From contig JBDLIZ010000002.1 of NCBI GenBank assembly GCA_039714615.1, positions 1 through 32,002 of the forward strand: DNA of 32,002 nt, written 5' to 3'. Shown in pieces: positions 1,032 through 30,757 of this stretch (the stretch's first letter is position 1; every line of letters begins with the position of its first letter). The translations under genes were made by a program, and so were the position numbers. The notes beneath the pieces are model-generated. The model saw only the letters and a program-made list of their open reading frames with translations. It had not been told where the DNA came from and searched no databases. The stretch comes from Pseudomonadota bacterium. GTDB taxonomy: Bacteria > Pseudomonadota > Gammaproteobacteria > JAAEPA01.

Positions 1032-4000
1032 TCATCTCGGCCCTTGCGGTTCGGTAACCGCCTTCTTTTGGCTATTAGGCCTACGCCTTTTGATCTCCAG
1101 TTGAATCGCGCGCCATATTCCCTGGTCGGAAAAACAAGCCCAACCCCAGCGCAACCAGCCCAATAGTGCAAAAGCCAGCCACAGGGCCCAGGCGAGCATC
1201 AATACCCTATAGACAAGCAGGGGAACGGAAAGCACCCAGGCCCGTGGCAGAGTGTTTTGGATCCGGTCCTGATACCAGTTCAGTTCATGGGCATAGGAAC
1301 GGTTACCCGCGATCTGCATCTCCGGGACCCCCAACAGGCCCTGTTGGACGACGTAGAACAATGCGATCAGGGCCGATAGCGTCAGCAAGACGAGACCGAG
1401 CTGTACGGTGTTGAAGGTAAACTTGGAGACCCCTTCCGGGATCCTTGCCCTCAGGCCCAAGGCCAACAGCCAGCCCGCCACGATTACTGCGATCCAGGAC
1501 GGCGCTTGGCTCAGCCCTATACCTAACAGAACCCATTGCCAATACCCTAGGGGGGTGAGCCGAATACGGGCAAGCCCGATGGCAATCAGAACGATGACCA
1601 GTAGAACCCCCCAGAACAGGACCGCGGGGCCCAGCCGCGGCCCCCCCGTGGCAAGCACCCAGCGATCTCGTCCCAACTCGACCGTGATCGAGCTGTTGAC
1701 GCTGGCAGCCCCCAGATCCATTTCCGGTGTCTTTAACCGGCTATGGATACCCTCGGCGCGACGCCAGTTCATACGGATGTCCTGTTTCCCAGGCCTGATC
1801 GGCAGGTCCACCTGCCGGCCTTGTTGGCGGATGGGTTGGGCAACCCCGTCGATGCTGACCGATTGCAACCGTACCTGCTCGGGCAATATCAACCGGTGCC
1901 GGCCTCCTTGACTGCTGCGTATCGTCAGCGCCAGGTTAGCCTCCGTGGCGCGCCGTCCGGTAGATATCCGCAAATGACTTCTGTCTATGGTAATAGTCTG
2001 TCCCGCTACACCCTCAGGCCGGGTGATGTCTAACTGTACCTGTTCCCCCGGCCAGGGACGCCATTCGGGTAACCAGCGTTGGCTCGGGTCCTGGTGATGG
2101 ACGACCGGGATACCGCTCAATTCGACATGCCAGATCGGACCGATATCAGCACGCCACAGCTCCGACCAGGCAGGATCATCACCCGCGCTCAGCACGATCC
2201 GTTGGTTCTGCTCGAGCCTGGATGACCATTGCAACTGCTTCTGCTCGGGGCCCATATTCACCAAGACCTTACCCTGTTTAACCCGGATTCCAGCACTGAG
2301 CACCGACTCGCCTGGCAACAGGGGAATCTGCAATACCACGGGCACCCCCGTGGGTGAGCTGCGTACGATGCGCGTCCTGACGTGCCAATCCAAACCTAAT
2401 TGCAGGGTGCGCTCGACGCTGACAAAAGGCGGTAAGGCCGCAGATTCAAACGCACCAGCTTGCTCTGTATCCCCTTGAATACGGGTGAATTGCAGCTGTT
2501 GATCCGGCACCCCGTCTTCATGCACGCCCGCTACCGTCCAGCCCTGGGCATTCACCTCGACATGATGGGGTTTGAGAGCCAGCGGCAGTTGAAGGCGTTC
2601 AAACCCCGTCAGCACCCCGGAGAACTGTACCAGATGGCGCCCTTTCTCTACCTGTATCCACAGCGGCCCGGAAGCGGATCGAAACAAGGCTTGGGTCTCG
2701 GCGCCATCGATGAGCACCTGCTGTGGGGCCCAATGCCGTACATCGATGGGCAGGGGGATGGCGCTCTCATCCTGGGCATAGACCTCCAACCGGGCGTGTA
2801 TGTGCTGATCGGAGAGATCCAGGCGCAGGCGTGCAATCTGCGCACACTGGGGCAGGCATTCAGGGGCTTGCAGAAGTCGCTGTTCGAGCTGTTTGAGCAT
2901 CTCAGGAGTGGGAAATTCGGCCCCTGCGTCCTGAACCATCGAGCCGCCGAGCAGCCCGAGGACTAACAGCAGCACGGCGCCATGGCTAGTAACCCGGGGG
3001 ATGCGACGTAAAAGTTCGCCTGGATTAAAAACACGCAAGCTAAATCCCGCCAACAACAGCACGCTTATTAGGTTCAATACAAGATTGATGCCGGGAGACA
3101 GTAAAGACAGGGTGATGGTCTGGTCCTTGTCCACGGGCCCCTGCCAGCTCAGCGGGATGGATGCCCATTGCCAGCGTGGCAGTCCCGGACCGGTCTGAAT
3201 GTTGGCCTTGGGGTCGATCTTGACAAACGGTGCCCTTGAGCTCGCTCTTTTCTCTGCCGGGGCCATTGATTTGTATTCTGCAAGGATATCGGCCTCATAA
3301 CGCTCCACCGACCTCCTGCCTTGTTTCTCAGCTGTTGCCGGGGCGGCACCCTCAGCGGCGCCCACCGAACGCCATGGATATTCCAGCTGAGGATAAAGCC
3401 CCGTACGCACCTCCTGGACCATGAATGGCAAGGCCACCAACACCAGCGCAACAAGACTGGCATTACGATACCAGCGCACCAGGAATTGTATACGTCCAGC
3501 CGGTAATACCCTCAATAAGGCCACGGCCGCCAGGATATTGAGCCAGATATATCGCGGGGCCCCGGGTTCGTGCCAGATCAACCCCAGAGTGACCAAGGCC
3601 AGCACACCCCAGGGCCATCCCCATAGGCGGCCCACCGCGATGGCAACGATCAACACGATAAACAGGTCCAGCAGGGTCCAGCGCTGCAGCCAGGAATTGG
3701 GGACATTATCTACCCCCGAGACCGAAAACAGCTTCCAACCCGGTGGCAGATGCAGATTGGCCCGCACCTGTTGGAAATCTTGACCCCAGCCCGTGACCGG
3801 CAGAGTGTGCACTTCACCGAGATATCGGCTATCGGCGCTAAGGCTGATGGCCCCCCTGCGCACCTCCAGGCCACGTTTATCCGTACCGGACAATCTAGTA
3901 ATGAACTGAGGCGTCCCGTCTACGGCCACCCGGCCCAGGGCGATCTGCTCATTGGCCTCCAACCGCCAGCCCCGGGTCATGCTGCCGGTGATTCGATCCT

Positions 4001-5114
4001 GCAAGGTATATCCATCGCCGCTGAAATCCAACCACAGATTGCGCTCCAGGGACAGTTGATCGGGCTCGGGTTCGGGGTCGCCCCGGCGAACGACCTCCAG
4101 ATCCAGCATATCCCCGGTTGTTAGCCGGTAGGCCGGTAGATTGCGCCATGGCTCGGGGAGCTTGGTCTGGCGTGGGTCCACCATCGGTGCCCCCTTGAGT
4201 TCCACTAGCCGCAGATGGGGCCGCGCATCAAAGACCCAGACCTCTTCCTGCGGCCAGGGCGGCGCGGATTCCTGCACACCGATCCGAGTGATATCCCCGG
4301 GGTGACGCGCCGTAAACTCAACGCTCCAGTGCCCGGGACGTAGCTGCAATCGAAGCCGACCTTCCCGCTCCAATCGAGCGGGCAAGCGACTGTCGAGCCG
4401 CAAAGGAATGAAGTCATCCAACAATGCCCCGTCAAGCAGCACCTCACGTGGTGCGCCGGAAACCTCCATCTCGATATGGGTAATAAGCCGCAAGGGATTG
4501 TCATCGATCAGCCGACGAAAGACCTGCAGTTCCAGCCGTTCGCTGGGTGGTGCTTGTGTCTTACGATCGGAATCGCGTTCCCGCAGCCAAAGATGGCCAT
4601 TGGAATCGACATCTGGGATAGGTATCACCCGGCCCTCAACGGTGAGCGTCACCAAGGCGCTGGCCGCCGGAATGGGCAGGGTCTTGGGCAGGCGGTCCCA
4701 GACAAAGCGCCCTTCGATGCGCTGCTGACCGACTTCGAGCCAGAGGCTTGGGCGGCCCTCATGGCTGGCCACCAAGGCCGTCTCACCATTGAGCTGGACA
4801 TCTTGCGGCCAGAGCTTGCCGTCGCCGGGCAGCTTCACCCGGCTTTTTGCATAAACCCGCCAGGATTGACTGAACGTCCCACCCTGTTGATCGAGTCTCA
4901 ATTCGAGCCGCACGGGCCATGCGCATCGCCGATGGCTGCTGTTGTACACATGTGGGCAGGCCCGGTCTTGGTGGTCCAGCAATACCCAGTCAACCCATGG
5001 TTGCAGTGGCTTGGGAATATCCTCGGACGAGAGTGCTGCTCCAAGAGCGAAACTTGAAAACGACAGGATTGCAATGAGTACTGTGAAACGGATGGTGTGC
5101 ACAGCAAACTCCAT
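1032..5114 (-). CDS. Very large (about 1,360 aa) multi-pass membrane protein of unknown function with an internally duplicated architecture
   Basis: Uninterrupted 4.3-kb ORF. The start is placed at MEFAVHTIRFTVLIAILSFSSFALGAALS (signal-peptide-like) rather than the ORF-track start at 5324. It has two long soluble modules, each followed by clusters of hydrophobic helices. No known catalytic motif was recognised. Confidence 0.8.
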   Translation of the reverse strand: MEFAVHTIRFTVLIAILSFSSFALGAALSSEDIPKPLQPWVDWVLLDHQDRACPHVYNSSHRRCAWPVRLELRLDQQGGTFSQSWRVYAKSRVKLPGDGKLWPQDVQLNGETALVASHEGRPSLWLEVGQQRIEGRFVWDRLPKTLPIPAASALVTLTVEGRVIPIPDVDSNGHLWLRERDSDRKTQAPPSERLELQVFRRLIDDNPLRLITHIEMEVSGAPREVLLDGALLDDFIPLRLDSRLPARLEREGRLRLQLRPGHWSVEFTARHPGDITRIGVQESAPPWPQEEVWVFDARPHLRLVELKGAPMVDPRQTKLPEPWRNLPAYRLTTGDMLDLEVVRRGDPEPEPDQLSLERNLWLDFSGDGYTLQDRITGSMTRGWRLEANEQIALGRVAVDGTPQFITRLSGTDKRGLEVRRGAISLSADSRYLGEVHTLPVTGWGQDFQQVRANLHLPPGWKLFSVSGVDNVPNSWLQRWTLLDLFIVLIVAIAVGRLWGWPWGVLALVTLGLIWHEPGAPRYIWLNILAAVALLRVLPAGRIQFLVRWYRNASLVALVLVALPFMVQEVRTGLYPQLEYPWRSVGAAEGAAPATAEKQGRRSVERYEADILAEYKSMAPAEKRASSRAPFVKIDPKANIQTGPGLPRWQWASIPLSWQGPVDKDQTITLSLLSPGINLVLNLISVLLLAGFSLRVFNPGELLRRIPRVTSHGAVLLLVLGLLGGSMVQDAGAEFPTPEMLKQLEQRLLQAPECLPQCAQIARLRLDLSDQHIHARLEVYAQDESAIPLPIDVRHWAPQQVLIDGAETQALFRSASGPLWIQVEKGRHLVQFSGVLTGFERLQLPLALKPHHVEVNAQGWTVAGVHEDGVPDQQLQFTRIQGDTEQAGAFESAALPPFVSVERTLQLGLDWHVRTRIVRSSPTGVPVVLQIPLLPGESVLSAGIRVKQGKVLVNMGPEQKQLQWSSRLEQNQRIVLSAGDDPAWSELWRADIGPIWHVELSGIPVVHHQDPSQRWLPEWRPWPGEQVQLDITRPEGVAGQTITIDRSHLRISTGRRATEANLALTIRSSQGGRHRLILPEQVRLQSVSIDGVAQPIRQQGRQVDLPIRPGKQDIRMNWRRAEGIHSRLKTPEMDLGAASVNSSITVELGRDRWVLATGGPRLGPAVLFWGVLLVIVLIAIGLARIRLTPLGYWQWVLLGIGLSQAPSWIAVIVAGWLLALGLRARIPEGVSKFTFNTVQLGLVLLTLSALIALFYVVQQGLLGVPEMQIAGNRSYAHELNWYQDRIQNTLPRAWVLSVPLLVYRVLMLAWALWLAFALLGWLRWGWACFSDQGIWRAIQLEIKRRRPNSQKKAVTEPQGPR

Positions 5115-5444
5115 AGACGTGAGTGGGAAAGCGACTCGAGCATCAAAAAACGGCAATCTATTCGATCGAGCACTTACTGTGTAACCGGTAATCGATCGCT
5201 GCCGCATCATTCCCGATAACACCCTATTGGGTTCACCGAAAGCGGTTCTAGATGACTTCTTGCAGATTAGCCAATAAGCAACGGTTATACACGGATGCGC
5301 ATATTTTAGTAGCGGGAGCCACATGAGTTTCCCTACAATGAGTCAGTTTATCACTTGGGGTTAGCACCGTTGCGGCAGGCACGCGACATAAAATCTGAAA
5401 CGATCGCGAACCCTACAACTTTCAATGCTAAATGGGAGAACTAC

Positions 5445-11600: not shown

Positions 11601-11893
11601 TACTCGGAGCGGGCATTCCGGAACAATGGGTCGTAAACGGAACCGGCGTTACATTAAAACGCTACCCGACCTATTTTGGGACGCTCAATTACAGCATGAG
11701 TCATTTGCAGGACGGTGCTATCCATTTGCGCATGAGCGGTGACCTGAACCTGCCACCTGGGGGTATCGTGGTCCACTCACCGCTGAATTCCTCCCTCAAG
11801 GGGGTGACTGTCAACGGCGAGACGATCGAAAAATTTGCGACGGATAAAGTTATCGTCAGGCAATTCCCGGCAGAGGTTGTATTACACTATTAG
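8684..11893 (+). CDS. Secreted 1,069-aa discoidin (F5/8 type C) domain protein with a C-terminal six-hairpin glycosidase-like domain; putative glycoside hydrolase
   Basis: The start is set at MQSIKPVFEDSFRQLILLGLCLSMATWSSQANG (signal peptide). The discoidin-like segment is EGQWLQLDFKQKREYGGLIIDWG...YEVQISDNGKDWARVY. The C-terminal region has the RSWIRDGAITSTAL motif reminiscent of GH15-like (alpha/alpha)6 barrels. Confidence 0.7.
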   Translation: MQSIKPVFEDSFRQLILLGLCLSMATWSSQANGIVLDDFEDVGDWKTSTSEGVDLEIAQDKGHTGMAMRLDFDFHDYNGGGFVLARKTLPITLPANYSFSFYIRGEAPLNNFEFKLIDPSGQNVWWFNRRNFEFPRKWQKITIKKRHIGFAWGPAGGELKEAATIEFAISAGKGKKGSVWIDELIFEEREPLAEHHEFPLVRASTTAAGYEASSVFEKDPATMWKSGSIAEGQWLQLDFKQKREYGGLIIDWGLEDYAEAYEVQISDNGKDWARVYSVASSNGDRDYVYLPDSESRYLRLDLQRSSRGQGYSIESIEIKPYQFSASPNNLFAAIARDSARGAYPRYFSGEQSYWTVVGVNGDQKEALINEEGMVEIDKTSFSIEPFLYIDDRLITWNDVNVSQELENDYLPIPSVLWDHSGLKLKITSFAAGESGESLLYLRYQVKNTTDQKRQGKLFLALRPFQVNPPWQSLNMTGGMGHIKELFADNGTIRVNNNKTVISLSATEHFGAVKFAQGSITDFLRTGTLPRQSTVFDHLGYASGALEYPLDLLPRESKEVYLIVPFHQTKPLVLKDRSEEAIARLWTEAFDATHRYWESKLNLIDLQLPSSPATRKIVNTLKTTLAYILINRDGSALQPGSRAYERSWIRDGAITSTALMNLGHTQEVRKFIEWYADYQFSNGKVPCCVDTRGADSVPENDSHGQWIYLVMEYYRNTRDTGFLTEMWPYVVKAANYINHLRQQRITEAYLKPEKSVLYGLVPESISHEGYSSNPVHSYWDDFFTLRGLKDATDIATILGEEEYATNFKRIRDAFSEALFESITRSITMHGIDFIPGAAELGDFDPAATTIGIDPVGEMVKLPQAALTRTFEKYYQILRERSQDGMHWEAYTPYELRAVGTFIRMGLKDRAHEALDFFFQDQRPPAWNHWGEIVWRDRNAPKFIGDLPHTWVGAEYIRAVRSLFLYERERDDALVLGAGIPEQWVVNGTGVTLKRYPTYFGTLNYSMSHLQDGAIHLRMSGDLNLPPGGIVVHSPLNSSLKGVTVNGETIEKFATDKVIVRQFPAEVVLHY

Positions 11894-12138
11894 TGGGACG
11901 GCGGCATGGATACAGCGGATCTAGCAAGATGTCTGACGAACATCTTGCCCGCCAACACCCGTCCATCTTCACCTCCATGATGAAGCTCCGGTCGATAGCC
12001 TTCTTCTTTCCCTGCCCGGACAAAGGCCTCATATCTTTGTCGACACGTCTTCAGCCGTTTGGCAAACTGACTCAGTACCCAATCGGTTTCTAGCCAGCAC
12101 TGCAGGGGGACGCCGTAGACTGCGAACTTGCTGAGCAT
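11890..12138 (-). pseudogene. C-terminal remnant of an IS200-like / REP-associated tyrosine-transposase family gene
   Basis: The 82-aa ORF contains WLETDWVLSQFAKRLKTCRQRYEAFVRAGKEEGYRPE, resembling the C-terminal tail of COG1943-type transposases. The catalytic N-terminal part is absent. Its 3' end overlaps the stop of the neighbouring gene. Confidence 0.45.
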
Positions 12139-12160: not shown

Positions 12161-12176
12161 AGACCCGACCCTGTTT
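12161..12176 (+). repeat. Left copy of a 16-bp direct repeat AGACCNGACCCTGTTT bounding the AT-rich acyltransferase-PilZ gene
   Basis: AGACCCGACCCTGTTT at 12161-12176 versus AGACCAGACCCTGTTT at 13725-13740 (15/16 identical). Confidence 0.6.
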
Positions 12177-12339
12177 TCCTCGCAATAATTTTTGGTTTTT
12201 CACTATCAATTCACTGCGAACGGGCAACCTGAATTTATTTAAACATCCTGCTAGCAAGCAGCCTCATGTTATCGGAGTTCGTACCGATATCTTAGCTGTC
12301 AGAGTTGCTGAAAGATGATTAGATTCAGGGGGGAAATCG

Positions 12340-13605
12340 ATGAATTTGCACTCCTTACAGGTTGTTACCAATCAACTATTCAATTCTTTCGTAAACTTGA
12401 AGCCGGTTACCCCTTGTAAGTATCGAAAGAAAATTCGGCTTAAATATCATCTGGATAAGCCTTACAATGTCAAGATCGCCGATACCTTAAATGAAATCGA
12501 GCAAGCCTACACCATGCTACAAGATTGCTACCAAGAAAGTGGGATTTTACGCAATCGGAAGGATACACCGATGCGGATAACCAAGTATCAAATCATCCCG
12601 AGCACTTCTCTGATCGTTCTAAAACTTCACGACGAAGTCATTGGCACAGTCTCTCTGATTGAAGACTCGCCGTTCGGTCTCCCTGTTGACCAGATGAGTG
12701 ATCTGCGCTTCCTACGTAAAACCGGCAAGAAAATATCCGAAGTTTCATCCTTTGCCATCAAAAAAAAATATCGAATGAAGGGGCTGCAATTCCTGATCAT
12801 CAATTTTATTCTTAGATACTCTCAATCCATCGCTGGAATTGATTATTGGGTAATTTCAACCCATCCGAGAACCATCAATTTCTATAAAAAATGTCTCGGA
12901 TTTCTTCCGATCGACCGCAAAACCAGAAAGTACGGCTTTGTAGAGGGCTCCGAAGCCTACGCTCAATACTTAGATATCGACCCCAGCACCTATCGCAAAA
13001 CTCTGAGAAAAATGTATCACAACACGGAGAAGTCAAAGAACCTATTACAATATTTTGACACTGACTTCTCCAACCATTTTAAATTTCGAACCTTAAAATA
13101 CTACAATGCAACTTCCTACATTATGTCGCCTAAAATCGTCGATTATTTCTTCAAGCGACAATCGAATGTTTTAGAACAACTATCCTATTATGAAATCGAA
13201 TTTCTAAAATCCATCTACAATTCTGTCGACTATAAAAAGATCATTGATAACCAGGGCTATAACGACGAAATGGCTACTCAGTTCAAACAAAAGGTGGAAC
13301 AACGATTTTATGTGAACTGTCAAGGCAAGGTCTTGTACAACAACACCACTCGGGTTGGTGATGTCAAAATTATCGACGTTTCTCTCAATGGTTTAAAAGG
13401 TATTGTGGGCAAAAATCTTATACTAAAAAATGCAGAACATGTCATGTTGGTTTTAGAAATTGCCCATCGGAGCAACATTACTATTGAAGCCGAGGTGACC
13501 TGGCAACGAGAAAAGCGAATTGGATTTAAAATCTTGGTTTCACCGCATTCCCAGTGGCGAGAATTTATTGACTATCTTACCTGTTTTTATGAGAAGGTTG
13601 CGTAG
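12340..13605 (+). CDS. Fusion protein: FeeM-like (GNAT-fold N-acyl amino acid synthase-like) acyltransferase domain plus C-terminal PilZ domain
   Basis: 421 aa with GGGGGAA RBS. The N-terminal half (...VIGTVSLIEDSPFGLPVDQMSDLRFLRKTGKKISEVSSFAIKKKYR...FYKKCLGFLPI) resembles the FeeM/Acetyltransf_5 family. The C-terminal ~100 aa has a PilZ-like beta-barrel pattern with DVSLNG (DxSxxG). G+C is low: 19-23 of 60 on three sampled lines. Confidence 0.6.
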   Translation: MNLHSLQVVTNQLFNSFVNLKPVTPCKYRKKIRLKYHLDKPYNVKIADTLNEIEQAYTMLQDCYQESGILRNRKDTPMRITKYQIIPSTSLIVLKLHDEVIGTVSLIEDSPFGLPVDQMSDLRFLRKTGKKISEVSSFAIKKKYRMKGLQFLIINFILRYSQSIAGIDYWVISTHPRTINFYKKCLGFLPIDRKTRKYGFVEGSEAYAQYLDIDPSTYRKTLRKMYHNTEKSKNLLQYFDTDFSNHFKFRTLKYYNATSYIMSPKIVDYFFKRQSNVLEQLSYYEIEFLKSIYNSVDYKKIIDNQGYNDEMATQFKQKVEQRFYVNCQGKVLYNNTTRVGDVKIIDVSLNGLKGIVGKNLILKNAEHVMLVLEIAHRSNITIEAEVTWQREKRIGFKILVSPHSQWREFIDYLTCFYEKVA

Positions 13606-13724
13606 AATTCGGATCAGAGCAACTTTTCAAATGTATCCTTTGCGAGCCGAAACCAAGTTGGCATCCCCGACCGGGACTTGCACCCGGCAAGAAACACCAA
13701 GCTTTGCTTGGCGCACTAGAATCT

Positions 13725-13740
13725 AGACCAGACCCTGTTT
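13725..13740 (+). repeat. Right copy of the 16-bp direct repeat AGACCNGACCCTGTTT
   Basis: See the 12161-12176 feature. Confidence 0.6.
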
Positions 13741-14652: not shown

Positions 14653-15093
14653 ATGAACTGCTATCTCAGTGTTTCCACTGCGGCCAAGATGGCCGGTGTT
14701 AGCCGCAGTCATATTCAAAAAAAGATTCGCAAGGGGAAACTGAGCACTTTTGAAGGCAAAGTATCGGTATCGGATCTTATCCTTGCCTATCCTGATATCG
14801 AACTCGAAGATACCACCGTACTGGAACGGATGTCCCGAATTCAACGAAATGCCACCCACAAAACCCTAGAAATCGATTGCCCTAAAGAACAGCTCATGGC
14901 GGCAGAACTGGGTCGTCTGCGCCTGGAACTGGCAGATTCCAAGGCTGAAATTCAGCGCTACCATAAACTGGTACTGGGTCTGAAACAGCGGTTGATGGAC
15001 ATTCAAGAAGAGGATGATTGCACGCGGCGGCAAAGGCTCGTTTTACAAGCACTCATCAGTTGGATGCTGCAAAAGGTAGAGCAACAAGCTTAA
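14653..15093 (+). CDS. Helix-turn-helix (excisionase/MerR-like HTH) protein with a coiled-coil C-terminal half
   Basis: 146 aa with a GAGGAGG RBS 7 nt upstream. The N-terminus LSVSTAAKMAGVSRSHIQKKIRKGKL is a typical HTH_17-like motif. The C-terminal half is heptad-rich. Confidence 0.65.
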   Translation: MNCYLSVSTAAKMAGVSRSHIQKKIRKGKLSTFEGKVSVSDLILAYPDIELEDTTVLERMSRIQRNATHKTLEIDCPKEQLMAAELGRLRLELADSKAEIQRYHKLVLGLKQRLMDIQEEDDCTRRQRLVLQALISWMLQKVEQQA

Positions 15094-15100
15094 TCTGTAT

Positions 15101-15177
15101 CATTAAGGAGTCATTAAGGAGTCATTAAGGAGTCATTAAGGAGTCATTAAGGAGTCATTAAGGAGTCATTAAGGAGT
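15101..15177. repeat. Tandem array of the 11-bp unit CATTAAGGAGT, 7 perfect copies
   Basis: Direct reading. The array fills the convergent intergenic gap between the HTH gene (stop 15093) and the hrpA 3' end (15205). Confidence 0.97.
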
Positions 15178-15204
15178 CACTGCCATCCCGGTCAGGAATG
15201 CGGA

Positions 15205-18200
15205 TTAAGCTTCCTCCCCACTCACCCGCCGCCATTGAGACTGCAGGCGTTTGGCGGAAATGGGAATGGATGTCTTAAGGGCTTGAGCAAAGAGGGATAC
15301 CCGAAACTCTTCCAACATCCAGCGATATTGAGTCAATTCATCGTCGTTATTTATTTTATCTTGTTGGTCCTGCCGGACTTTTTTGTATCTCCCCCAGAAC
15401 GGCAATATCTCAGCTCGCAGCCCACAGTCCTTCTCCGGGACACGCTGAAGCTTGTCAAGTCGGATACCTATCGCCCTCAAATACCGTGGTATGTATTCCA
15501 ACCACCGTGGCGGTGTGTTGAGGATAAAATCATCATGAATAAGATACCCTAGCTGTTCTTTGACATCGCTGATGACCTCTTTATGCAGACCCAAGGCATC
15601 GTCTTGCAGACGCAGGCGCAGAGTGTGATACTGGTCAAGTATGGTCGAAAGCAACTCACACAACCGGTTTGCTGTGGGGATCAATTTAGACCTACCCGCC
15701 TCAAGACGCTGCAAGAATTCGTCCCGACTCGTCGGTGGCCCCCCATCATGTAGAAATACCCTGTCGAACACCGCTTCGACGATCTCAGTTTTCATCGAAT
15801 CACAGCGACCCAGCGGCTGAAAGTGCATACACAAGGTCTGCGCATGGGGAAGATTTTTTTGCAGATATTTAGCCTGATCTTGAAGCTTGAGCAGATAAAG
15901 TCGGCGGATGCCTTTGCGACTTTCCTGGTTTGCCTTGCGGGCCGTATCATAGTGACACAAATCCACACTATTACCCCGATCCACTACCGCTCGATAAGCG
16001 AAAGCGCGGATTCCAGCCTGCTCGATCTCCACGGGTTCCGTAAGCCCGCCGAAGTCCCAATCGGTCATTGCGCTGCGCTCCATGTCTGCGGTCAATGTGG
16101 CGCTGAAACTGTGCAAGACCTGTTCGGCAAGTTTATTCTGCAACTGTCTCAGATCACGACCAGTACCCAGCGTATCCCCTTGGATATCGACAATCTCAAA
16201 ACGCATGCGCAGGTGATCGGGGACAGCATCGGGACGCCAGTCATGTGCAGTAACGCGAATGCCAGTCATTCGTTGCAACTCCAGGCTCAGGCGTTCGATC
16301 AAAGATCCCTCGTAAGGCAACATGGCCTCGATACAGGCTCGGGCGAAGTCTGGTGCGGGGACGAAATTTCTACGCAGCGGCTTGCTTAGACCCTTGATCA
16401 GTGCCACGACCTTCTCTTTGAGCAAACCGGGTACTAGCCATTCACAGTGGCGCGGATCAAGCTGGTTCAACAATGCTAGGGGCACCGTCAAGGTCACACC
16501 ATCGCGTTCATCACCGGGTTCGAAATGGTAATTCAACGCCAGTGAAGTGTTCGCTGTAACCATCCGATCGGGATAGTGTTGCTGCGTCCCCAAAATTGCC
16601 CCATCACAGATAAGTTGCGCACGGGTCAGGTAGAGCTTGGGCTCCTCACCACTGGTCTTCAGCCACTTTTCAAAGGCCTTACCACTGTAGATCTGCGATG
16701 GAATTCTTGCATCATAAAATCCGTACAGAATAGCATCACTAGCCAAGATATCGTGTCTGCGAGCCTTGGCCTCTTGTTGCATGATCTCGGCCACGAGGGC
16801 GTGATTATGTTGAAAAAACCCGGCACGCGTCTTGAAACGCCCACCAATCAATGCCTCTCGAATGAAGATCTCCCGAGCCTCAACAGGGGCTATCGGACCG
16901 TAGTTGATCCGCCTGCGTGGGACCAGCACCAGACCATATAGGGTAACCTTTTCAAAGGCGCCTACCTGGGCGGCGCGAGATTGCCAATGGGGCTCAAAGT
17001 GGTCACTCCTGCTCAGATGACGTGCAGCTTCCACAACCCAATGTGGCTCGATACTTGCCACCGTCCGCGCAAACAAACGACTGGTTTCGACAAGCTCTGC
17101 GGCCATAATCCATTTGGGCGGTTTTCCATGGAGCCCAGAACCGGGAAACACCCAGAATCTTCGATTGCGGGTGCCTTGATAGCCGTTTTTCTCATCCTTA
17201 AAACCGATGTGGCTTAGCAGACCAGTGAGCAGAGCCTTGTGTATCGCGGCATAATCTGCAGCTTTATTATTAACACTCGCCCCTAGCCCGGATACCCTAT
17301 TACACAACTGCCCATGAATGTCCTGCCATTCGAACACCCGGGTGACCGAAAGAAAATACTCCCGGCATAGCTTGCGAAATTTGGACTTCGATAAATGTTT
17401 ACGCTGCTCGCGCAAAAACTCCCACAATTTGATGAAACTCAGAAAATCAGAACGTGGGTCCTGAAAGCGTTTCTGTTTTTGGTCTGCGGTTTCTCGCCGA
17501 TCCAAGGGCCGTTCTCGAGGATCCTGTGCCGCAAGCGCACTGACGATGATAAGAACCTCCCGCAGACAATGCCCCTCGACCGCGGCGAGAACCGTCCTTC
17601 CCAGGCGAGGATCCACCGGCAGGCGGCTCAACTTCCTGCCGGTCTCCGTGAGCCTGCGACCTTGATCAATAGCCTGCAATTCCTCGAGCAGTTTATACCC
17701 ATCATTGATCAACCGCGCGTCTGGCGGATCCAGGAATGGAAACGATTCCACCTCACCGAGCCGCAGGTGATTCATTTGTAAAATGACTGATGCCAGGTTG
17801 GTGCGCAGTATCTCGGGGGGGGTATACTCAGGGCGGTTCTCGAAATCCCGCTCTGAGTACAATCTAATGCATACTCCAGGCGAGGTACGGCCACAACGAC
17901 CCGCGCGTTGATGTGCAGCGGCCTGTGATATGGGCTCTATCGGCAGCCGTTGCACCTTGCTGCGCGCACTATAGTGACTAATCCGGGCCGTGCCGCTATC
18001 AATAATATACTTGATACCAGGGACAGTGAGGGAGGTCTCCGCCACATTGGTCGCCAGCACAATCCGCCGCCCTGAATGCGGCTGGAACACCCGGTTTTGC
18101 TCTGCAAACGACAAACGGGCATAGAGTGGAAGAATCTCGGCGCCTTTGGGATGATGTTTTCTCAGCGCCTCGGCAAGCTCACGTATCTGGCGCTCACCGG

Positions 18201-19080
18201 GTAAAAATATCAATATATCTCCGGGCCCCAATCGGCTCAGTTCATCGACGGCATCGAGTATGCCTTGTTGCAGATCACGCTGTTCACCCTCGGTATCAGG
18301 CGACAAAGGTCGATAGCGCACATCCACGGGATAGCCCCGGCCAGAGACCTCGATGATCGGTGCGGCCTTGAAATAGCTTGCAAAGCTGTGCGGATCTATC
18401 GTCGCGGAGGTAATGATGAGCTTGAGATCCGGTCGCTTGGGCAATATCTGACTCAAATAGCCCAGCAGAAAATCGATATTGAGGCTACGCTCGTGCGCCT
18501 CATCTATGATGATGGTATCGTATCGAAACAATAGCCTATCATGCTGAATCTCGGCCAGAACGATACCGTCGGTCATCAGTTTGATATAGGCCCCCGCCCC
18601 AAGCTGGTCGTTAAATCGGACCTTGTAACCAACCGCATCACCCAGGGGTGAACCGAGCTCTTCGGCAATGCGCGTCGCCACGCTGCGTGCGGCGATACGA
18701 CGCGGCTGGGTATGCCCGATCAAACCGGTCACTCCCCGACCAGCCTCCAGACACATCTTAGGCAGCTGAGTCGTCTTGCCAGAACCGGTTTCACCACAAA
18801 CGATAACTACCTGATGATCGATAATGGACTGCACAATATCACCGCGCTTGCCCGTAATCGGCAGATCCGCTGGAAATGCAAGCCGGGGGAGGAGAGCACG
18901 CCGTTGGTTCAAGCGACCGTGCGAAGCGGAAATATCCTCCTGAAGCTGGGCCAGGCGCTTGGTCCGCGCCGCCGCACCTGCCTTTACCAGCCGCCGCAAC
19001 CGACGATGTAACGCGGGTCGGTCTGTTAGCATACAACCGGAGATTAAGCGCTGAAGTTGATCGATGGTCGGCTCAGCCAA
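15205..19080 (-). CDS. hrpA: ATP-dependent RNA helicase HrpA (DEAH-box)
   Basis: 1,291 aa with GETGSGKTTQLP (motif I), DEAHERS (motif II), SATID, and a long HrpA-type C-terminal extension. The N-terminus aligns with E. coli HrpA (..LMLRDR..RRL..). The start is TTG with AAAGG upstream. Confidence 0.95.
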   Translation of the reverse strand: MAEPTIDQLQRLISGCMLTDRPALHRRLRRLVKAGAAARTKRLAQLQEDISASHGRLNQRRALLPRLAFPADLPITGKRGDIVQSIIDHQVVIVCGETGSGKTTQLPKMCLEAGRGVTGLIGHTQPRRIAARSVATRIAEELGSPLGDAVGYKVRFNDQLGAGAYIKLMTDGIVLAEIQHDRLLFRYDTIIIDEAHERSLNIDFLLGYLSQILPKRPDLKLIITSATIDPHSFASYFKAAPIIEVSGRGYPVDVRYRPLSPDTEGEQRDLQQGILDAVDELSRLGPGDILIFLPGERQIRELAEALRKHHPKGAEILPLYARLSFAEQNRVFQPHSGRRIVLATNVAETSLTVPGIKYIIDSGTARISHYSARSKVQRLPIEPISQAAAHQRAGRCGRTSPGVCIRLYSERDFENRPEYTPPEILRTNLASVILQMNHLRLGEVESFPFLDPPDARLINDGYKLLEELQAIDQGRRLTETGRKLSRLPVDPRLGRTVLAAVEGHCLREVLIIVSALAAQDPRERPLDRRETADQKQKRFQDPRSDFLSFIKLWEFLREQRKHLSKSKFRKLCREYFLSVTRVFEWQDIHGQLCNRVSGLGASVNNKAADYAAIHKALLTGLLSHIGFKDEKNGYQGTRNRRFWVFPGSGLHGKPPKWIMAAELVETSRLFARTVASIEPHWVVEAARHLSRSDHFEPHWQSRAAQVGAFEKVTLYGLVLVPRRRINYGPIAPVEAREIFIREALIGGRFKTRAGFFQHNHALVAEIMQQEAKARRHDILASDAILYGFYDARIPSQIYSGKAFEKWLKTSGEEPKLYLTRAQLICDGAILGTQQHYPDRMVTANTSLALNYHFEPGDERDGVTLTVPLALLNQLDPRHCEWLVPGLLKEKVVALIKGLSKPLRRNFVPAPDFARACIEAMLPYEGSLIERLSLELQRMTGIRVTAHDWRPDAVPDHLRMRFEIVDIQGDTLGTGRDLRQLQNKLAEQVLHSFSATLTADMERSAMTDWDFGGLTEPVEIEQAGIRAFAYRAVVDRGNSVDLCHYDTARKANQESRKGIRRLYLLKLQDQAKYLQKNLPHAQTLCMHFQPLGRCDSMKTEIVEAVFDRVFLHDGGPPTSRDEFLQRLEAGRSKLIPTANRLCELLSTILDQYHTLRLRLQDDALGLHKEVISDVKEQLGYLIHDDFILNTPPRWLEYIPRYLRAIGIRLDKLQRVPEKDCGLRAEILPFWGRYKKVRQDQQDKINNDDELTQYRWMLEEFRVSLFAQALKTSIPISAKRLQSQWRRVSGEEA

Positions 19081-27342: not shown

Positions 27343-29553
27343 CTAAGAAAGATCAATAGGATCCACATCCAGAGACCAGCGGACTTTGCGGGTACTGCGC
27401 ATCGACTTAAATATTTTTATCCATTCATCGAGCAGATCCATGAGCGGGCCACGTTGCTCCGCAATAGCCAATAGATGAACCCGATACATTCCCGATCGCC
27501 TTTCCATAGGTGGTGGCGCCGGACCCAGGATGTTCAGCCCTTGGCAGAGGGCCTTGGTAGTTGAGGATCGAACCTGTTCCAGAAAGGCCTGGGGAGCATG
27601 CGGTTGCGTACCCTCGGCACGCAACAGGGCCATATGTCTATAAGGGGGAAGATCGGCGCTGCGCCGGTCCCGCAGCGCAGCCTCGCCGAAGGCCTCATAT
27701 CCTCTGGACAACAAGAGCTGCAGCAACGGGTGCTCAGGTTGATGAGTCTGCAATATCACCTTGCCAGGTTTACCGGCCCGGCCCGCACGACCGGCGACCT
27801 GAACGATCAACTGCGCCAGCCGCTCGGTGGCACGAAAATCGGTGCTGTATAGCCCGTAATCCACGTTTACGATGCCCACTAAGGTCACCTCTGGAAAATC
27901 GTGACCTTTGGACAACATCTGGGTACCAATCAGTATCCGATGTTCGCCTCGATGAATCTGCTCCAATTTGGTCTGCATCTCACCTCGGCGACGCGTGGTA
28001 TCCCGGTCGATGCGGATGATGGAGGTATCGTTAAACCGCTGTCTAAGCCCCTGCTCCAAACGTTCGGTCCCAGCGCCTAACTCACGCAAATCTGGGCTCC
28101 CACAGTCCGGACAGGTTTGAGGGCGAGACCGCTGCGCCCCACAGTGATGACAGCGCAGCGACCGATGAGCCACATGCACGGTCATAAAGGCATCACAGCG
28201 TTCACAACTTACGGCCCAGCCGCATTGATGACAAATGAGCACTGGCGCGAAACCGCGCCGATTAAGGAACAGTAACACCTGCCCATCGGCCTCCAAGTGA
28301 CGATACATCTCCTCAAACAGTGGTTTGGAAACCCCGTCCTCGATCTCCTGGGATCTGATGTCGATGACCTCGAACCCTGGCAGACTGGCCCCTCCCGCCC
28401 GCTCTCGCAGCTTGAGGAGCCGGTATCTGTGGAGTTGAACGTTGCGCAGACTTTCCAGAGAAGGTGTCGCCGAGCCGAGCAGCACCGGGATGCCATACTG
28501 CCTGGCCCGGTATACCGAGATATCCCTCGCATTGTAACGAAAGCCTTCCTGCTGTTTGAAGGAAGCATCGTGTTCCTCGTCGACGATGATCAATCCCGGC
28601 CGTGCTAACGGGGTAAAAACAGCAGAGCGCGTACCGATGACTACCCCGGCCTCACCCAAGCCCGCCATATACCAGGCACAATGGCGCTGACCATCGGACA
28701 ATCCAGAATGCAAAACGGCGAGAGGCTGCGAAAAACGACGGCGAAACCGGTTGACGAGCTGCGGAGTAAGCCCAATCTCTGGAACCAGCACCAATACCTG
28801 CCGACCCTTCTTCAACAGCTGGTCCGCGAGATTCAGATAGACCTCGGTCTTGCCGCTACCGGTCACCCCGTCCAATAGAAACGCAGTAAACTCCTCTAAG
28901 CGCGCGCTAACGGCGTTGACCACATGAGATTGCTGGCCATTGAGCTGCGGAGCATGATCCGCATGACCATGATCAGGTACCAGGCAGGGTCGATTAGTTT
29001 TTTGTACTAGCCCCTTTAGGGACAGACCCTTCATGGCTGGGTGCCAATGATATTGCAACTGATGCAGCTCGCAACCCCCTAGACCGGCGGGAGACTTATT
29101 CAACAGCTGTAACAATGCGAACTGTTTTGGAGCCCGTTTGAGCTGATCGGGAGTAATCAGGCGGCCCTGGTCCGTAATCCGCCATACCACTTCGCCTTCC
29201 ACCACTGCCTTTTGACCCTGACGTAAGCGTTTGGGCAAGGCGGTGCTGACCACCTCGCCGATAGGAAAGTGATAATAAGCACTCGACCATCGCAACAGCT
29301 CCAACAATTTCTGCTCGAGGACAGGTGCGGAATCCAGGACGTCGACTACCCGTTTCAGTCGATTTTGCGCAACTCGACTCTGATAGCTCAGCCCCATGAT
29401 CACGCCGATTGCCTGGCGCCGCCCGAAGTTCACTCTAACCCTCATTCCAACTTTGATACCCCCCCCTGCAGATCCAAGAGGTGGAAGATAATCGAAGGTG
29501 TCATACAACGGCGAGGGTACTGCAACCTGGAGAATCAGCGGTCCTGACATCAT
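27343..29553 (-). CDS. priA: Primosomal protein N' (replication restart helicase PriA)
   Basis: 736 aa with Walker A GVTGSGKTEVY, DEEHD, and the Cys-rich zinc module CHQCGW..CERCD...CHHCG...CPDCG. Confidence 0.95.
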   Translation of the reverse strand: MMSGPLILQVAVPSPLYDTFDYLPPLGSAGGGIKVGMRVRVNFGRRQAIGVIMGLSYQSRVAQNRLKRVVDVLDSAPVLEQKLLELLRWSSAYYHFPIGEVVSTALPKRLRQGQKAVVEGEVVWRITDQGRLITPDQLKRAPKQFALLQLLNKSPAGLGGCELHQLQYHWHPAMKGLSLKGLVQKTNRPCLVPDHGHADHAPQLNGQQSHVVNAVSARLEEFTAFLLDGVTGSGKTEVYLNLADQLLKKGRQVLVLVPEIGLTPQLVNRFRRRFSQPLAVLHSGLSDGQRHCAWYMAGLGEAGVVIGTRSAVFTPLARPGLIIVDEEHDASFKQQEGFRYNARDISVYRARQYGIPVLLGSATPSLESLRNVQLHRYRLLKLRERAGGASLPGFEVIDIRSQEIEDGVSKPLFEEMYRHLEADGQVLLFLNRRGFAPVLICHQCGWAVSCERCDAFMTVHVAHRSLRCHHCGAQRSRPQTCPDCGSPDLRELGAGTERLEQGLRQRFNDTSIIRIDRDTTRRRGEMQTKLEQIHRGEHRILIGTQMLSKGHDFPEVTLVGIVNVDYGLYSTDFRATERLAQLIVQVAGRAGRAGKPGKVILQTHQPEHPLLQLLLSRGYEAFGEAALRDRRSADLPPYRHMALLRAEGTQPHAPQAFLEQVRSSTTKALCQGLNILGPAPPPMERRSGMYRVHLLAIAEQRGPLMDLLDEWIKIFKSMRSTRKVRWSLDVDPIDLS

Positions 29554-29668
29554 TGGCTAGAATTCAGCGTTGACGAAGCGAGTATACGAAACGAAATAGG
29601 CAGCCTATACGCACCCAGGATATACCGGGCACCGCCTTAATATAGATTAGCTCTAGTTAAAAAGAGGG

Positions 29669-29703
29669 TTATCCACAAAAACTGTGGATAACTTTGTGGA
29701 TTA
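29669..29703. promoter_or_regulatory. Cluster of three DnaA boxes (one forward, two reverse)
   Basis: TTATCCACA at 29669-77 (perfect consensus), TGTGGATAA at 29683-91 (perfect, reverse orientation) and TGTGGATTA at 29695-703 (one mismatch, reverse). A tract of about 30% G+C follows directly. Confidence 0.75.
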
Positions 29704-30099
29704 GTTGTCATAAACCTGCAGATAATGACACTAATGGTCCTTTAATCAAAACAAACATATCCCACGAAAACTAAATAATAGGCTTATTAATCAATAAATT
29801 ATATACACCAGACTGATCGACGCACAAACCCGTCGACAACATATAGTGCAAAAATCGGGCATAATGCATTTTGTGCATAAAATGATATTTTTCATCGATT
29901 TGACCTTGACAAACCTAGACTTCAGTGCGCTCTTATATGCGCAACCAGCCGTAGGTCGAGGCTAAGTGTTTGATCCTGAGCGACTTGAGAATTGACCGTA
30001 CTTTGCATGGTGAGCAACTTTCCGCCCGGGAGAGGATCATATTATCGGATTATCAAGCCAGATTGAATAAGACCCTCAGCCCAGTAGCCTGTCCAAGGT

Positions 30100-30127
30100 T
30101 TGCATTTCCCCTGGGTTTGCATATAAA
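30100..30127 (+). promoter_or_regulatory. Candidate sigma70 promoter for the HNH endonuclease gene
   Basis: TTGCAT (30100-05), a 16-bp spacer, then TATAAA (30122-27), about 40 nt upstream of the GTG start. This is a sequence match only. Confidence 0.3.
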
Positions 30128-30166
30128 TTGCCCAGTAGCAGATCCTGTCCTTTGGAGGTGATCATC

Positions 30167-30757
30167 GTGTACGACTTGACTCAACAGGTACTGCGTACCG
30201 ACAAATCAGGCATGCCGTTGGAATGGATCGGCTATCAGGAGGCGGTGCGCCTCTACTATACCGATCAGGTCGCGTATTATTGCGGAACCGCCCTGTATCG
30301 AATCCATGGCGGTATTAGCGCCTGCACCGGTGCTCAAAGTGTCATCGAGATCAATTCAATCATTGCCACTAACGGCAGCAATAGATCAATACTCCATGAC
30401 TACGTCCCTCCGTTGAACAACCCTGCACTGTTCAGACGTGATGCGCAGCTCTGCCTGTATTGCGGTATTGCTTACCGCGATAAAGAACTCTCCAGGGACC
30501 ACGTCAGGCCATTGAGCTGGGGTGGCAAAGATCATTGGAACAACGTAGTCTCTGCCTGCAAACGTTGCAACAATCACAAGGCAGGGCGGACCCCGGAGGA
30601 GGCAGGGATGGAGTTACTGGCCATACCCTTTACGCCTACCCATGCCGAATACATCTACCTGCAGGGGCACAGGGTATTAGCTGATCAAATGGAGTTCCTG
30701 ATGGCCCACTTCCCGCGCAGTAGCCCATTGCACGAGCGCCTGCGCAACAGGATTTAA
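30167..30757 (+). CDS. HNH endonuclease family protein
   Basis: 196 aa from a GTG preceded by GGAGG at an 8-nt spacing. The HNH/zinc motif is CLYCG...SRDHVRPLSWGGKDHWNNVVSACKRCNNHKAG. Confidence 0.85.
   Translation: MYDLTQQVLRTDKSGMPLEWIGYQEAVRLYYTDQVAYYCGTALYRIHGGISACTGAQSVIEINSIIATNGSNRSILHDYVPPLNNPALFRRDAQLCLYCGIAYRDKELSRDHVRPLSWGGKDHWNNVVSACKRCNNHKAGRTPEEAGMELLAIPFTPTHAEYIYLQGHRVLADQMEFLMAHFPRSSPLHERLRNRI

Follow-up and report, generated by a model that had tools for sequence, protein, structure and literature searches.

[quoted passage not shown] The frame starts with an ATG, is preceded by an in-frame TGA at 12316-12318, and ends with the stop codon at 13603-13605. An N-terminal extension (aa 1-44, 12340..12471) leads into the NAS domain (aa 45-214, 12472..12981), followed by the connector (aa 215-316, 12982..13287) and the PilZ domain (aa 317-421, 13288..13602), all on the forward strand. 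The full-length AlphaFold2 model is confident (pLDDT 92.2, pTM 0.91), and the high pTM implies that the arrangement of the domains is fixed. A preliminary description made from the sequence had recognized the open reading frame, both domains, an intact DVSLNG motif, the linker, and the AT-richness, all of which hold. The peptides it quoted are present in the sequence, and what has to be corrected is its register for the RRxxxR motif.

The gene is indeed AT-rich, with a G+C content of 0.394 compared to 0.524 for the window. Its one close homolog lies on a second contig, L001, where blastn aligns positions 12247 to 13608 at 89.4% nucleotide identity, between flanks that show no relationship. The two contigs have nothing in common beyond the gene and the 93 bp ahead of it (12247..12339, forward strand), and a gene of 0.39 G+C sits within two contigs of 0.52-0.54 G+C. 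Foreign composition and a sole close homolog in unrelated flanks together support the horizontal acquisition that had been suspected, and we propose that a unit of ~1.36 kb, the gene with its 93-bp leader, was taken up. This conserved upstream region, a 5' leader or promoter, contains a palindrome (TATCGGagttcgtaCCGATA), and a G-rich stretch resembling an RBS precedes the ATG. A simple scan recognized no consensus sigma-70 promoter, and neither the leader nor the small low-GC islet around the gene matched an Rfam family, c-di-GMP riboswitches included. Phage origin found no match in tblastn searches against phages, and plasmid origin found two distant plasmid relatives only. Locus searches with the single protein returned the known MAG contig only from genomes, and nothing from metagenome and viral contigs.

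Foreign composition, an islet populated by short unannotated ORFs, and the lack of a recognized promoter in the scan would also fit a decaying, non-functional remnant of a transferred gene. We regard this as very improbable, because the 421-aa frame is intact and colinear with its family from end to end, every invariant family residue is present, the fold is predicted with confidence, and the whole-CDS dN/dS relative to the L001 ortholog is 0.149 at a dS of 0.38. Calculated per domain against this 89% ortholog, omega is 0.14 for the NAS domain, 0.12 for the connector, and 0.16 for the PilZ domain; purifying selection on the PilZ domain equals that on the catalytic domain.

The NAS domain matches the Pfam FeeM model PF21926 at 97 bits (cutoff 27, E=1.3e-27) across aa 55-207 and 153 of the 158 profile positions, and phmmer matches it to FeeM in the PDB (2g0b, E=4e-6). 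The preliminary description had named the Acetyltransf_5 model PF13444 as the one to search; this model has no match in the protein in the Pfam search, and the assignment to the FeeM type comes from PF21926 instead. In structural comparison the AlphaFold2 model superimposes on 2g0b with a TM score of 0.82 (Foldseek, E=1.8e-12, rmsd 3.2 over 182 columns, 26% identity), with BjaI and LasI as the next fold classes. Glu134 (codon 12739..12741, forward strand), the putative catalytic base, aligns in the phmmer comparison with the glutamate in the FeeM segment GKKLAEVVQFA. It is the equivalent of FeeM Glu95 and Nas354 Glu103, and it is invariant in 142 of 142 family members and likewise in a set of 110 relatives. 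FeeM therefore shares with the 421-aa protein its fold, its Pfam family, and the aligned catalytic glutamate. However, FeeM, a soil eDNA enzyme classed as a type I long-chain N-acyl tyrosine synthase, is a single domain of ~190-200 aa encoded within the fee cluster, and it has neither connector nor PilZ domain.

The segments that flank the NAS domain are less familiar. The N-terminal extension, which falls outside the Pfam FeeM match, has a predicted helix at aa 3-18 of lower confidence (block pLDDT 64/61/75) and carries a basic segment, KYRKKIRLKYHLDK; the family consensus in the extension is LPxxxRxxxxR. The connector is family-specific and helical, with AlphaFold2 helices at 215-226, 235-240, 264-273, 277-280, 283-292, 296-302, and 309-315 (pLDDT >90 in the full-length model) and conserved residues Y226, N234, FF270-271, L281, E285, L289, and Y293. 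Modeled in isolation it is poor (pTM 0.43); it is predicted with confidence only as part of the full-length chain. No known domain was recovered with Pfam (27 members searched), a PDB profile search, or Foldseek with the separate model, in agreement with the earlier remark that ~100 aa between the two domains are unassigned; an NCBIfam match, PRK14852, spans aa 38-302. The connector also occurs in relatives of ~300 aa that have no PilZ domain.

The fusion itself is not unique, and the gene is a divergent further member of a published architecture. Thies et al. (2016, Sci Rep 6:27035, PMC4897644) described two metagenomic two-domain N-acyl amino acid synthases, Nas343 and Nas354 (GenBank KM669715 and KM669716). 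Nas354 consists of a NAS domain (1-200), a linker (200-278), and a PilZ domain (279-394); it produces N-myristoyl-L-tyrosine in E. coli without manipulation of c-di-GMP, and its E103A mutant is inactive. By this description the two proteins have a like layout, an N-terminal type I NAS domain with a catalytic glutamate, a linker of ~80-100 aa, and PilZ, and they are also ~400 aa long and encoded by stand-alone genes outside a biosynthetic operon. The 421-aa protein differs from Nas354 in having ~30 more N-terminal residues (Glu134 versus Glu103) and a slightly longer connector. The best matches reported for the Nas343 and Nas354 DNA are Dechloromonas and Sinorhizobium-like, whereas our gene is on a contig of gammaproteobacterial type.

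The family is also large. An exhaustive HMMER search gave 2974 matches, ~400 of them strong, so the apparent rarity suggested by word-indexed searches, which found 2 proteins with the single sequence as query and 5 with the profile of 142 sequences, was an effect of the index. Counted at 50% identity, at least ~140 clusters have the full architecture, with representatives of 376-470 aa that are colinear with the 421-aa protein; identity to all relatives except one (P0001) is at most 34%. Given this family size and an architecture published in 2016 with its product identified (PMC4897644), the novelty implied by the preliminary description was overstated.

The C-terminal domain scores just over threshold against the Pfam PilZ model (PF07238, 25.4 bits, cutoff 22.5, E=1.9e-5, aa 320-413). 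With both domain scores above their cutoffs, the proposed fusion of a FeeM-type acyltransferase to PilZ is borne out. The AlphaFold2 model shows six strands forming a beta-barrel at aa 323-400, followed by a C-terminal helix at aa 403-420. Individual PilZ matches are found in 75 of the 110 relatives (best E=5.7e-14), and the other 35 miss E<=0.01. For the family C-terminal profile, the top PDB matches are VCA0042, BcsA, Alg44, and PA4608 (best E=6.8e-4), and Foldseek also matched BcsA chains. The RxxxR and DxSxxG motifs of BcsA (cellulose synthase), Alg44, VCA0042/PlzD, and PA4608 align with this profile.

The first of these motifs is altered in the 421-aa protein. The ‘RRxxxR’ position lies at the connector/barrel junction, aa 317-322 (13288..13305, forward strand), and reads Q-K-V-E-Q-R, a KxxxR variant; the register comes from an alignment of 142 family members and from the family profile against c-di-GMP-bound VCA0042 (RRKEPR). 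EQRFYV (aa 320-325), which had been assigned to this site, is two residues out of register, and because of this shift the arginines were described as missing. In fact, Arg322 is present, as it is in 142 of 142 members, and just the first arginine of RxxxR is conservatively changed, to Lys318. The family consensus is RxxxR, with Arg at position 318 in 111/142 and Lys in 8/142, compared to K318-V-E-Q-R322 here, and the leading extra arginine of ‘RRxxxR’ is not conserved across the family (K26/R16/Q15 and others). AlphaFold2 confidence dips locally at aa 301-320 (pLDDT 78/74), which suggests a flexible hinge between connector and barrel. The second motif, [D/N]xSxxG, is intact as D346-V-S348-L-N-G351 (13375..13392, forward strand), as had been claimed for aa 346-351; it aligns with DLSRSG of VCA0042 and fits the family columns (D52/N38/E36 at the first position, S348 in 132/142, G351 in 139/142). 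The protein thus departs from canonical PilZ receptors in its first RxxxR residue and, along with its family, in the leading arginine, and binding of c-di-GMP is here a prediction.

In canonical PilZ domains, the arginine at the first RxxxR position touches the ligand. With Lys318 in its place, c-di-GMP binding by this member may be weak or lost (the preliminary description had suggested, on other grounds, that it is lost or altered), and its affinity is probably below that of canonical family members. PilZ domains that do not bind c-di-GMP exist, PilZ/PA2960 itself being an example. The NAS domain could be active next to a PilZ domain that has ceased to be a c-di-GMP sensor and serves as a structural cap or as a module for docking to a protein or membrane, in which case the enzyme would be constitutive, or under the control of a partner or of transcription only. 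Along with Lys318, the marginal Pfam score points in this direction, as do the family figures, since 22% of members lack Arg at 318 and 37% lack the complete canonical motif set, which is found in 90/142. The activity of Nas354 in E. coli, as described above, is also consistent with it. On the other hand, R322, D346, S348, and G351 are kept, and the PilZ domain is under the same constraint as the catalytic domain. Arg to Lys is the most conservative change possible, and Lys at 318 has at least six independent origins in the family, beside canonical neighbors and with the remaining motif intact, which is not the pattern of a decaying motif. Weighing these points, we consider a non-sensing PilZ domain a serious but less probable alternative to a c-di-GMP-responsive one.

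Control of Nas343 and Nas354 by c-di-GMP was put forward as a hypothesis by Thies et al. (PMC4897644), and a literature search for experiments on c-di-GMP binding or regulation in any NAS-PilZ family member returned none. The same source cites NasP, a cAMP-activated N-acyl amino acid synthase (Clardy and Brady, 2007, as cited in PMC4897644). NasP is a precedent for direct second-messenger control of a NAS enzyme, although its nucleotide, cAMP, and its sensing module differ. Second-messenger control of the 421-aa protein, one of the options raised in the preliminary description, is the natural hypothesis. No diguanylate cyclase or phosphodiesterase is found among the window ORFs scanned.

The chemistry of the family can be approached through the gene neighborhoods of its relatives. 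In some of them a ThiF, nitroreductase, or methyltransferase gene lies alongside or is part of a fusion, and one (P0151) is a fusion with ThiF and nitroreductase partners. These three are tailoring enzymes for N-acyl-(dehydro)tyrosine and tyrazolone products (PMC10404671, PMC12479983), and the links therefore support aromatic N-acyl amino acid chemistry in the family. TyzA and NasY, from the tyzACB, thalassotalic acid, kyonggic acid, and stieleriacine clusters, are likewise NAS enzymes that acylate Tyr or Phe, TyzA with acyl-CoA as donor; unlike for the 421-aa protein, the papers on them make no mention of PilZ (PMC10404671, PMC12479983). The window ORFs scanned include no ThiF, nitroreductase, or methyltransferase gene and hence no cluster of the tyz or stieleriacine type, and a plain, saturated, non-cyclized N-acyl amino acid is therefore the product to expect.

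A different acyl transfer would also be compatible with part of this evidence. The enzyme might acylate ornithine, glycine, or lysine, as in the OlsB/GlsB-like aminolipid pathways, or another amine or a peptide, which would make its product a membrane lipid rather than a secreted surfactant or signal. Weak matches to Acetyltransf_5, the OlsB-type model, occur in 24 of the 110 relatives, two relatives (L002 and L006) have as neighbors genes for an MMPL lipid exporter and a LolA-like protein, and identity to characterized enzymes is very low, at 26% to FeeM. We nevertheless judge this unlikely, since FeeM is by far the best model and PF13444 finds no match in the protein itself, the relatives are linked or fused to a tyrosine-specific tailoring set, and the sole characterized protein with the NAS-PilZ architecture makes N-acyl-Tyr (PMC4897644).

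Our favored model, to which we give about an even chance, is a functional, horizontally acquired, stand-alone NAS-PilZ enzyme of the Nas343/Nas354 type in which lipoamino-acid synthesis is tuned by c-di-GMP. We infer that the FeeM-type domain would acylate an amino acid at its alpha-amino group, drawing the long-chain acyl moiety from an acyl thioester and using Glu134 as the catalytic base. By analogy with FeeM and Nas354 the donor would be acyl-ACP, with acyl-CoA conceivable as in TyzA, and the acceptor would most likely be an aromatic amino acid such as Tyr or Phe, giving a surface-active and membrane-active N-acyl amino acid. The connector is predicted to pack on both domains and to end in the KxxxR hinge into the PilZ barrel. 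Binding of c-di-GMP at KxxxR and DxSxxG could then shift the hinge together with the connector, thereby switching or tuning the acyltransferase, and lipoamino-acid output would follow the c-di-GMP state of the cell, that is, biofilm or sessility. The concept is the same as for BcsA, where an attached PilZ domain allosterically gates a biosynthetic enzyme, but the output enzyme of BcsA is a membrane glycosyltransferase, whereas here it would be a soluble GNAT-type acyltransferase.

In bacteria, N-acyl amino acids serve as surfactants and antibiotics and are candidate signals. If c-di-GMP acted as a direct switch on the synthase, lipoamino-acid production would be tied to the decision between biofilm and motility, and an acyltransferase would join the few enzymes gated in cis by PilZ, so far mainly cellulose and alginate synthases. 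More speculatively, NAS-PilZ proteins may form a widespread output arm of c-di-GMP signaling, in which the RxxxR hinge gates, through the connector, the synthesis of N-acyl aromatic amino acids that act as surfactants, antibiotics, or signals. Some lineages might in this way gate a whole pathway of ThiF, nitroreductase, and methyltransferase steps that leads to dehydrotyrosine or oxazolone lipids, and the recurrent Lys-for-Arg change might mark not a dead sensor but one tuned to low affinity or altered specificity, possibly for another nucleotide. A fusion seen first in two metagenomic clones proves to be a large family, with c-di-GMP motifs conserved at the family level and with members linked or fused to tyrazolone/stieleriacine tailoring enzymes, and these features make the hypothesis of 2016 directly testable. 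For comparison, the present gene supplies a naturally occurring KxxxR variant.

Taken by itself, however, the locus is an orphan copy, acquired horizontally and set among uninformative neighbors. No conserved operon partner was found in the window, where the neighbors are a glycoside-hydrolase-like gene, small ORFs, an HTH_17 (helix-turn-helix) excisionase-like gene, and hrpA. An 82-aa ORF at 11890-12138 on the reverse strand, which we took to resemble a transposase remnant, gave no match in Pfam, NCBIfam, or plasmid tblastn searches. A repeat search of the window identified a 16-nt direct repeat that brackets the gene, with a left copy (AGACCCGACCCTGTTT) at 12161..12176 and a right copy (AGACCAGACCCTGTTT) at 13725..13740, both on the forward strand. 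The repeat is absent around the L001 copy and is thus neither a conserved cassette boundary nor a shared att-like site. It is possibly an insertion scar, of uncertain significance: AGACCMGACCCTGTTT has two exact matches and one with 2 mismatches (at 2264), versus 0.02 expected in shuffles.

The open reading frame at 12340..13605 on the forward strand starts with ATG and encodes 421 amino acids, exactly as the preliminary description had placed it. An in-frame stop lies 24 nt upstream of the ATG, along with a G-rich ribosome-binding-like stretch. [quoted passage not shown] FeeM is also the sole significant match among PDB sequences (2g0b, E = 4e-6). An AlphaFold2 model based on 142 family sequences is very confident (mean pLDDT 92.2, pTM 0.91), and a Foldseek search with it returned FeeM at the top (TM 0.82, E = 1.8e-12), followed by the acyl-homoserine-lactone synthases BjaI and LasI, with the PilZ-bearing cellulose synthase BcsA likewise among the matches.

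This architecture is neither unique nor new. Almost no matches came from word-indexed searches, but the apparent rarity was an artefact of the index, as HMMER run exhaustively against 1.84 billion cluster representatives gave 2974 matches at E <= 1e-3, 383 of them at E <= 1e-30. About 140 of the best 150 of these 2974 are proteins of 376-470 aa that match in one stretch, from profile position ~10-40 to ~410-420, and in a sample of 110 relatives every protein has a FeeM match and 75 have an individual PilZ match (best E 5.7e-14). The window protein is a divergent member of a published, barely studied family. Judged by sequence identity, it forms a deep, rare branch with P0001, its close ortholog: no other relative exceeds 34% identity to it, the 90% cluster holding the pair has three members, and genome, metagenome and viral collections yielded no further close copies.

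The published members are Nas343 and Nas354, two genes cloned from metagenomic DNA (Thies et al., 2016; PMC4897644). E. coli expressing Nas354 alone formed N-myristoyl-L-tyrosine, the E103A mutant was inactive, both genes lay outside biosynthetic operons, and regulation by c-di-GMP was proposed by the authors (PMC4897644); a literature search found no follow-up work. The window protein is laid out like Nas354 but carries ~30 extra N-terminal residues, and we infer homology between them from architecture and shared family models. Glu134, the counterpart of Nas354 Glu103 and FeeM Glu95, is invariant across the family alignment. We consider it probable that the window protein has NAS activity.

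A key correction concerns the c-di-GMP motif, whose arginines had been described as missing with EQRFYV (aa 320-325) in their place. That register is wrong. We aligned the window protein with 141 full-length relatives, and also ran a profile of the C-terminal ~115 residues of the family against the PDB, in which the arginine columns correspond to R-R-K-E-P-R of the c-di-GMP-bound protein VCA0042 and the VSxxG columns to D-L-S-R-S-G. Because of these two alignments, the motif is placed at aa 317-322, Q-K-V-E-Q-R in window numbering. R322 is present and invariant (142 of 142 family members), and only Arg318 is replaced, by lysine; this position is Arg in 111 of the 142 and Lys in 8, the window protein and its ortholog among them. 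The leading extra Arg of RRxxxR is not conserved across the family. Since DVSLNG is intact, as originally noted, the window protein carries KxxxR plus a complete DxSxxG, which amounts to one conservative substitution. Lysine is found at position 318 in at least 6 lineages whose nearest relatives have Arg, with the remaining motif residues retained every time, and 90 of the 142 members have the canonical RxxxR and [D/N/E]xSxxG set. Whether the window protein itself binds c-di-GMP is about equally plausible either way, and the Lys318 variant would probably reduce affinity.

Nothing indicates decay of the PilZ domain. Between the window gene and its 89%-identical ortholog, dS is 0.38 and dN/dS is 0.149, with regional values of 0.136 for the NAS domain, 0.120 for the connector and 0.162 for the PilZ domain. 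These ratios and the intact frame contradict a dead gene, which we regard as extremely unlikely. Conversion of PilZ into a structural or docking module that no longer binds ligand is possible, though in our view less likely than not.

The ~100 aa between the domains had been called unassigned, and indeed no relatives of this segment were found in Pfam, PDB sequence or Foldseek searches. In the full-length model, aa 215-316 form seven short helices with pLDDT above 90, and Y226, N234, F270, F271, L281, E285, L289 and Y293 are conserved in the family. Modelled by itself, the segment reaches pLDDT 77 and pTM 0.43. Because the isolated model is less confident and relatives are lacking in those searches, we read the segment as a family-specific connector that would pack on both domains, not as an autonomous domain. 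The connector is found apart from PilZ as well: PRK14852 (NCBIfam) matches aa 38-302, and three PilZ-less proteins of ~300 aa stop after the connector (P0153, P0154 and a Methylorubrum plasmid gene product). The one pLDDT dip within the protein, to 78 and 74, falls over aa 301-320, and the KxxxR site is the junction of the last connector helix (aa 309-315) with strand 1 (aa 323-333), where the model fits what we would expect of a ligand-responsive hinge. Our preferred model, to which we give an even chance, is that an active NAS domain synthesizes N-acyl amino acids from acyl thioesters and that c-di-GMP binding at the C-terminal PilZ would tune this activity, with the signal passing through hinge and connector.

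As Thies et al. had observed, gene contexts of the relatives are variable. A single association recurs, with a ThiF-family gene of ~290 aa near the NAS-PilZ gene (contigs L002, L007, L008 and that of P0012); a nitroreductase-like gene follows it on the P0012 contig, and a class I methyltransferase gene lies between the ThiF and NAS-PilZ genes on L007 and L008. P0151 is one 949-aa polypeptide comprising methyltransferase, ThiF, FeeM and a PilZ-like C-terminus, which aligns with the family PilZ region (profile match to residue 938 of 949) and has no Pfam PilZ score. This Rosetta-stone fusion mirrors the order ThiF, methyltransferase, NAS-PilZ in metagenomic L007 (4287-7272) and L008 (1470-4455). 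These partners are the enzymes already known to tailor N-acyl tyrosines. In M. tuberculosis, acyl-tyrazolones are made by the NAS TyzA, the nitroreductase-superfamily desaturase TyzC and the ThiF-like cyclase TyzB (PMC10404671), and the thalassotalic acid, kyonggic acid and stieleriacine clusters are recognised by their NAS, ThiF and nitroreductase genes, in some cases with a methyltransferase gene as well (PMC12479983). By gene content, the fusion and the L007/L008 order link NAS-PilZ enzymes to a tyz/stieleriacine-type N-acyl-tyrosine tailoring pathway. Because of this association and the Nas354 product, the family most likely makes aromatic N-acyl amino acids; use of another acyl acceptor, in aminolipid-type chemistry, seems improbable. 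Whereas the ThiF/nitroreductase/methyltransferase set adjoins or fuses with these relatives, none of the three is found among the window ORFs scanned, and the expected product there is therefore an unmodified N-acyl amino acid.

The family size, family-level motif conservation, recurrent lysine variant and connector/hinge anatomy are new here, as is the link, fusion included, to tyrazolone/stieleriacine tailoring enzymes. These additions sharpen the hypothesis of c-di-GMP gating of lipoamino-acid synthesis.

Tandem NAS-PilZ paralogs immediately follow an MMPL (RND-type lipid exporter) gene on L002 (8737-11254) and L006 (373-2869), with a LolA-like TP_0789 gene and the ThiF gene also close to the pair on L002, which suggests that the lipid product is exported in this lineage. 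The NAS-PilZ relative P0021 (34% identical) sits on L005 (926-18038) inside a complete-looking tryptophan-to-kynurenine/3-hydroxyanthranilate degradation cluster (Trp dioxygenase, kynureninase, FAD monooxygenase, cyclase/formamidase, 3-HAO, amidohydrolase) and may be linked to aromatic amino-acid supply. On the mobilizable Methylorubrum populi plasmid pMPPM04 (L010, 5902-12545), the PilZ-less gene for NAS plus connector stands first in what looks like a small natural-product cluster with SAM methyltransferase, FAD oxidoreductase, tryptophan 7-halogenase and amidase genes.

The window is ordinary chromosomal DNA encoding ATP sulfurylase, ABC permeases, HrpA, NadA, ArgRS, PriA, ferrochelatase and a 1097-aa F5/8-type-C plus six-hairpin glycosidase-like protein. 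The NAS-PilZ gene lies in a ~3-kb low-GC islet between the glycosidase-like gene and hrpA (15205-19080, reverse strand), together with three small ORFs that include an excisionase-like one of HTH_17 (helix-turn-helix) type (14653-15093, forward strand). The gene is AT-rich, as had been described (0.394 G+C against 0.524 for the window), and at ~0.39 stands against ~0.54 in its neighbours both here and in L001, the contig of Gammaproteobacteria MAG GCA_024222475.1 that carries the ortholog. DNA shared by the two is limited to 12247-13608, the gene plus 93 bp upstream, and the L001 flanks are unlike those of the window (iPGM upstream, GH94 downstream). This limited sharing and the low G+C of the gene in both contigs support the view that a ~1.36-kb unit was acquired horizontally or relocated, in line with the horizontal origin first thought probable.

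A 16-nt direct repeat, AGACC[C/A]GACCCTGTTT, at 12161-12176 and 13725-13740 brackets the gene (0.02 matches expected by chance in the window); it is a possible insertion scar and is absent around the L001 ortholog. Neither a tRNA nor an Rfam element nor a recognisable transposase came out of the searches. An 82-aa ORF (11890-12138, reverse strand) immediately adjoins the end of the glycosidase-like gene and may resemble the C-terminal extension of IS200/RayT-type transposases, a likeness that gained no support from Pfam, NCBIfam or plasmid tblastn. The HTH_17 ORF has a weak match to NF038291 (E = 2.8e-6), a model for a DNA-binding protein of plasmid replication, and the short spacer between its end and that of hrpA holds a perfect 11-nt tandem repeat, TCATTAAGGAG x7.3 (15100-15179), possibly iteron-like or phase-variable. 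The contig opens with a perfect 10-nt tandem repeat, TTCTGCGGAT x9.9 (positions 1-99), and a comparable short-unit array of GGAATTAC type lies at ~5810-5855 in L001, upstream of the ortholog copy. The 1430-aa ORF at 1032-5324 (reverse strand), in a stretch of 0.59-0.62 G+C, encodes a large uncharacterised protein for which Pfam and NCBIfam gave nothing significant. An HNH endonuclease ORF (30128-30757, forward strand), located between priA and the gene for ferrochelatase, falls in a second patch of low G+C (0.46-0.48, ~29000-30500), possibly another small insertion.
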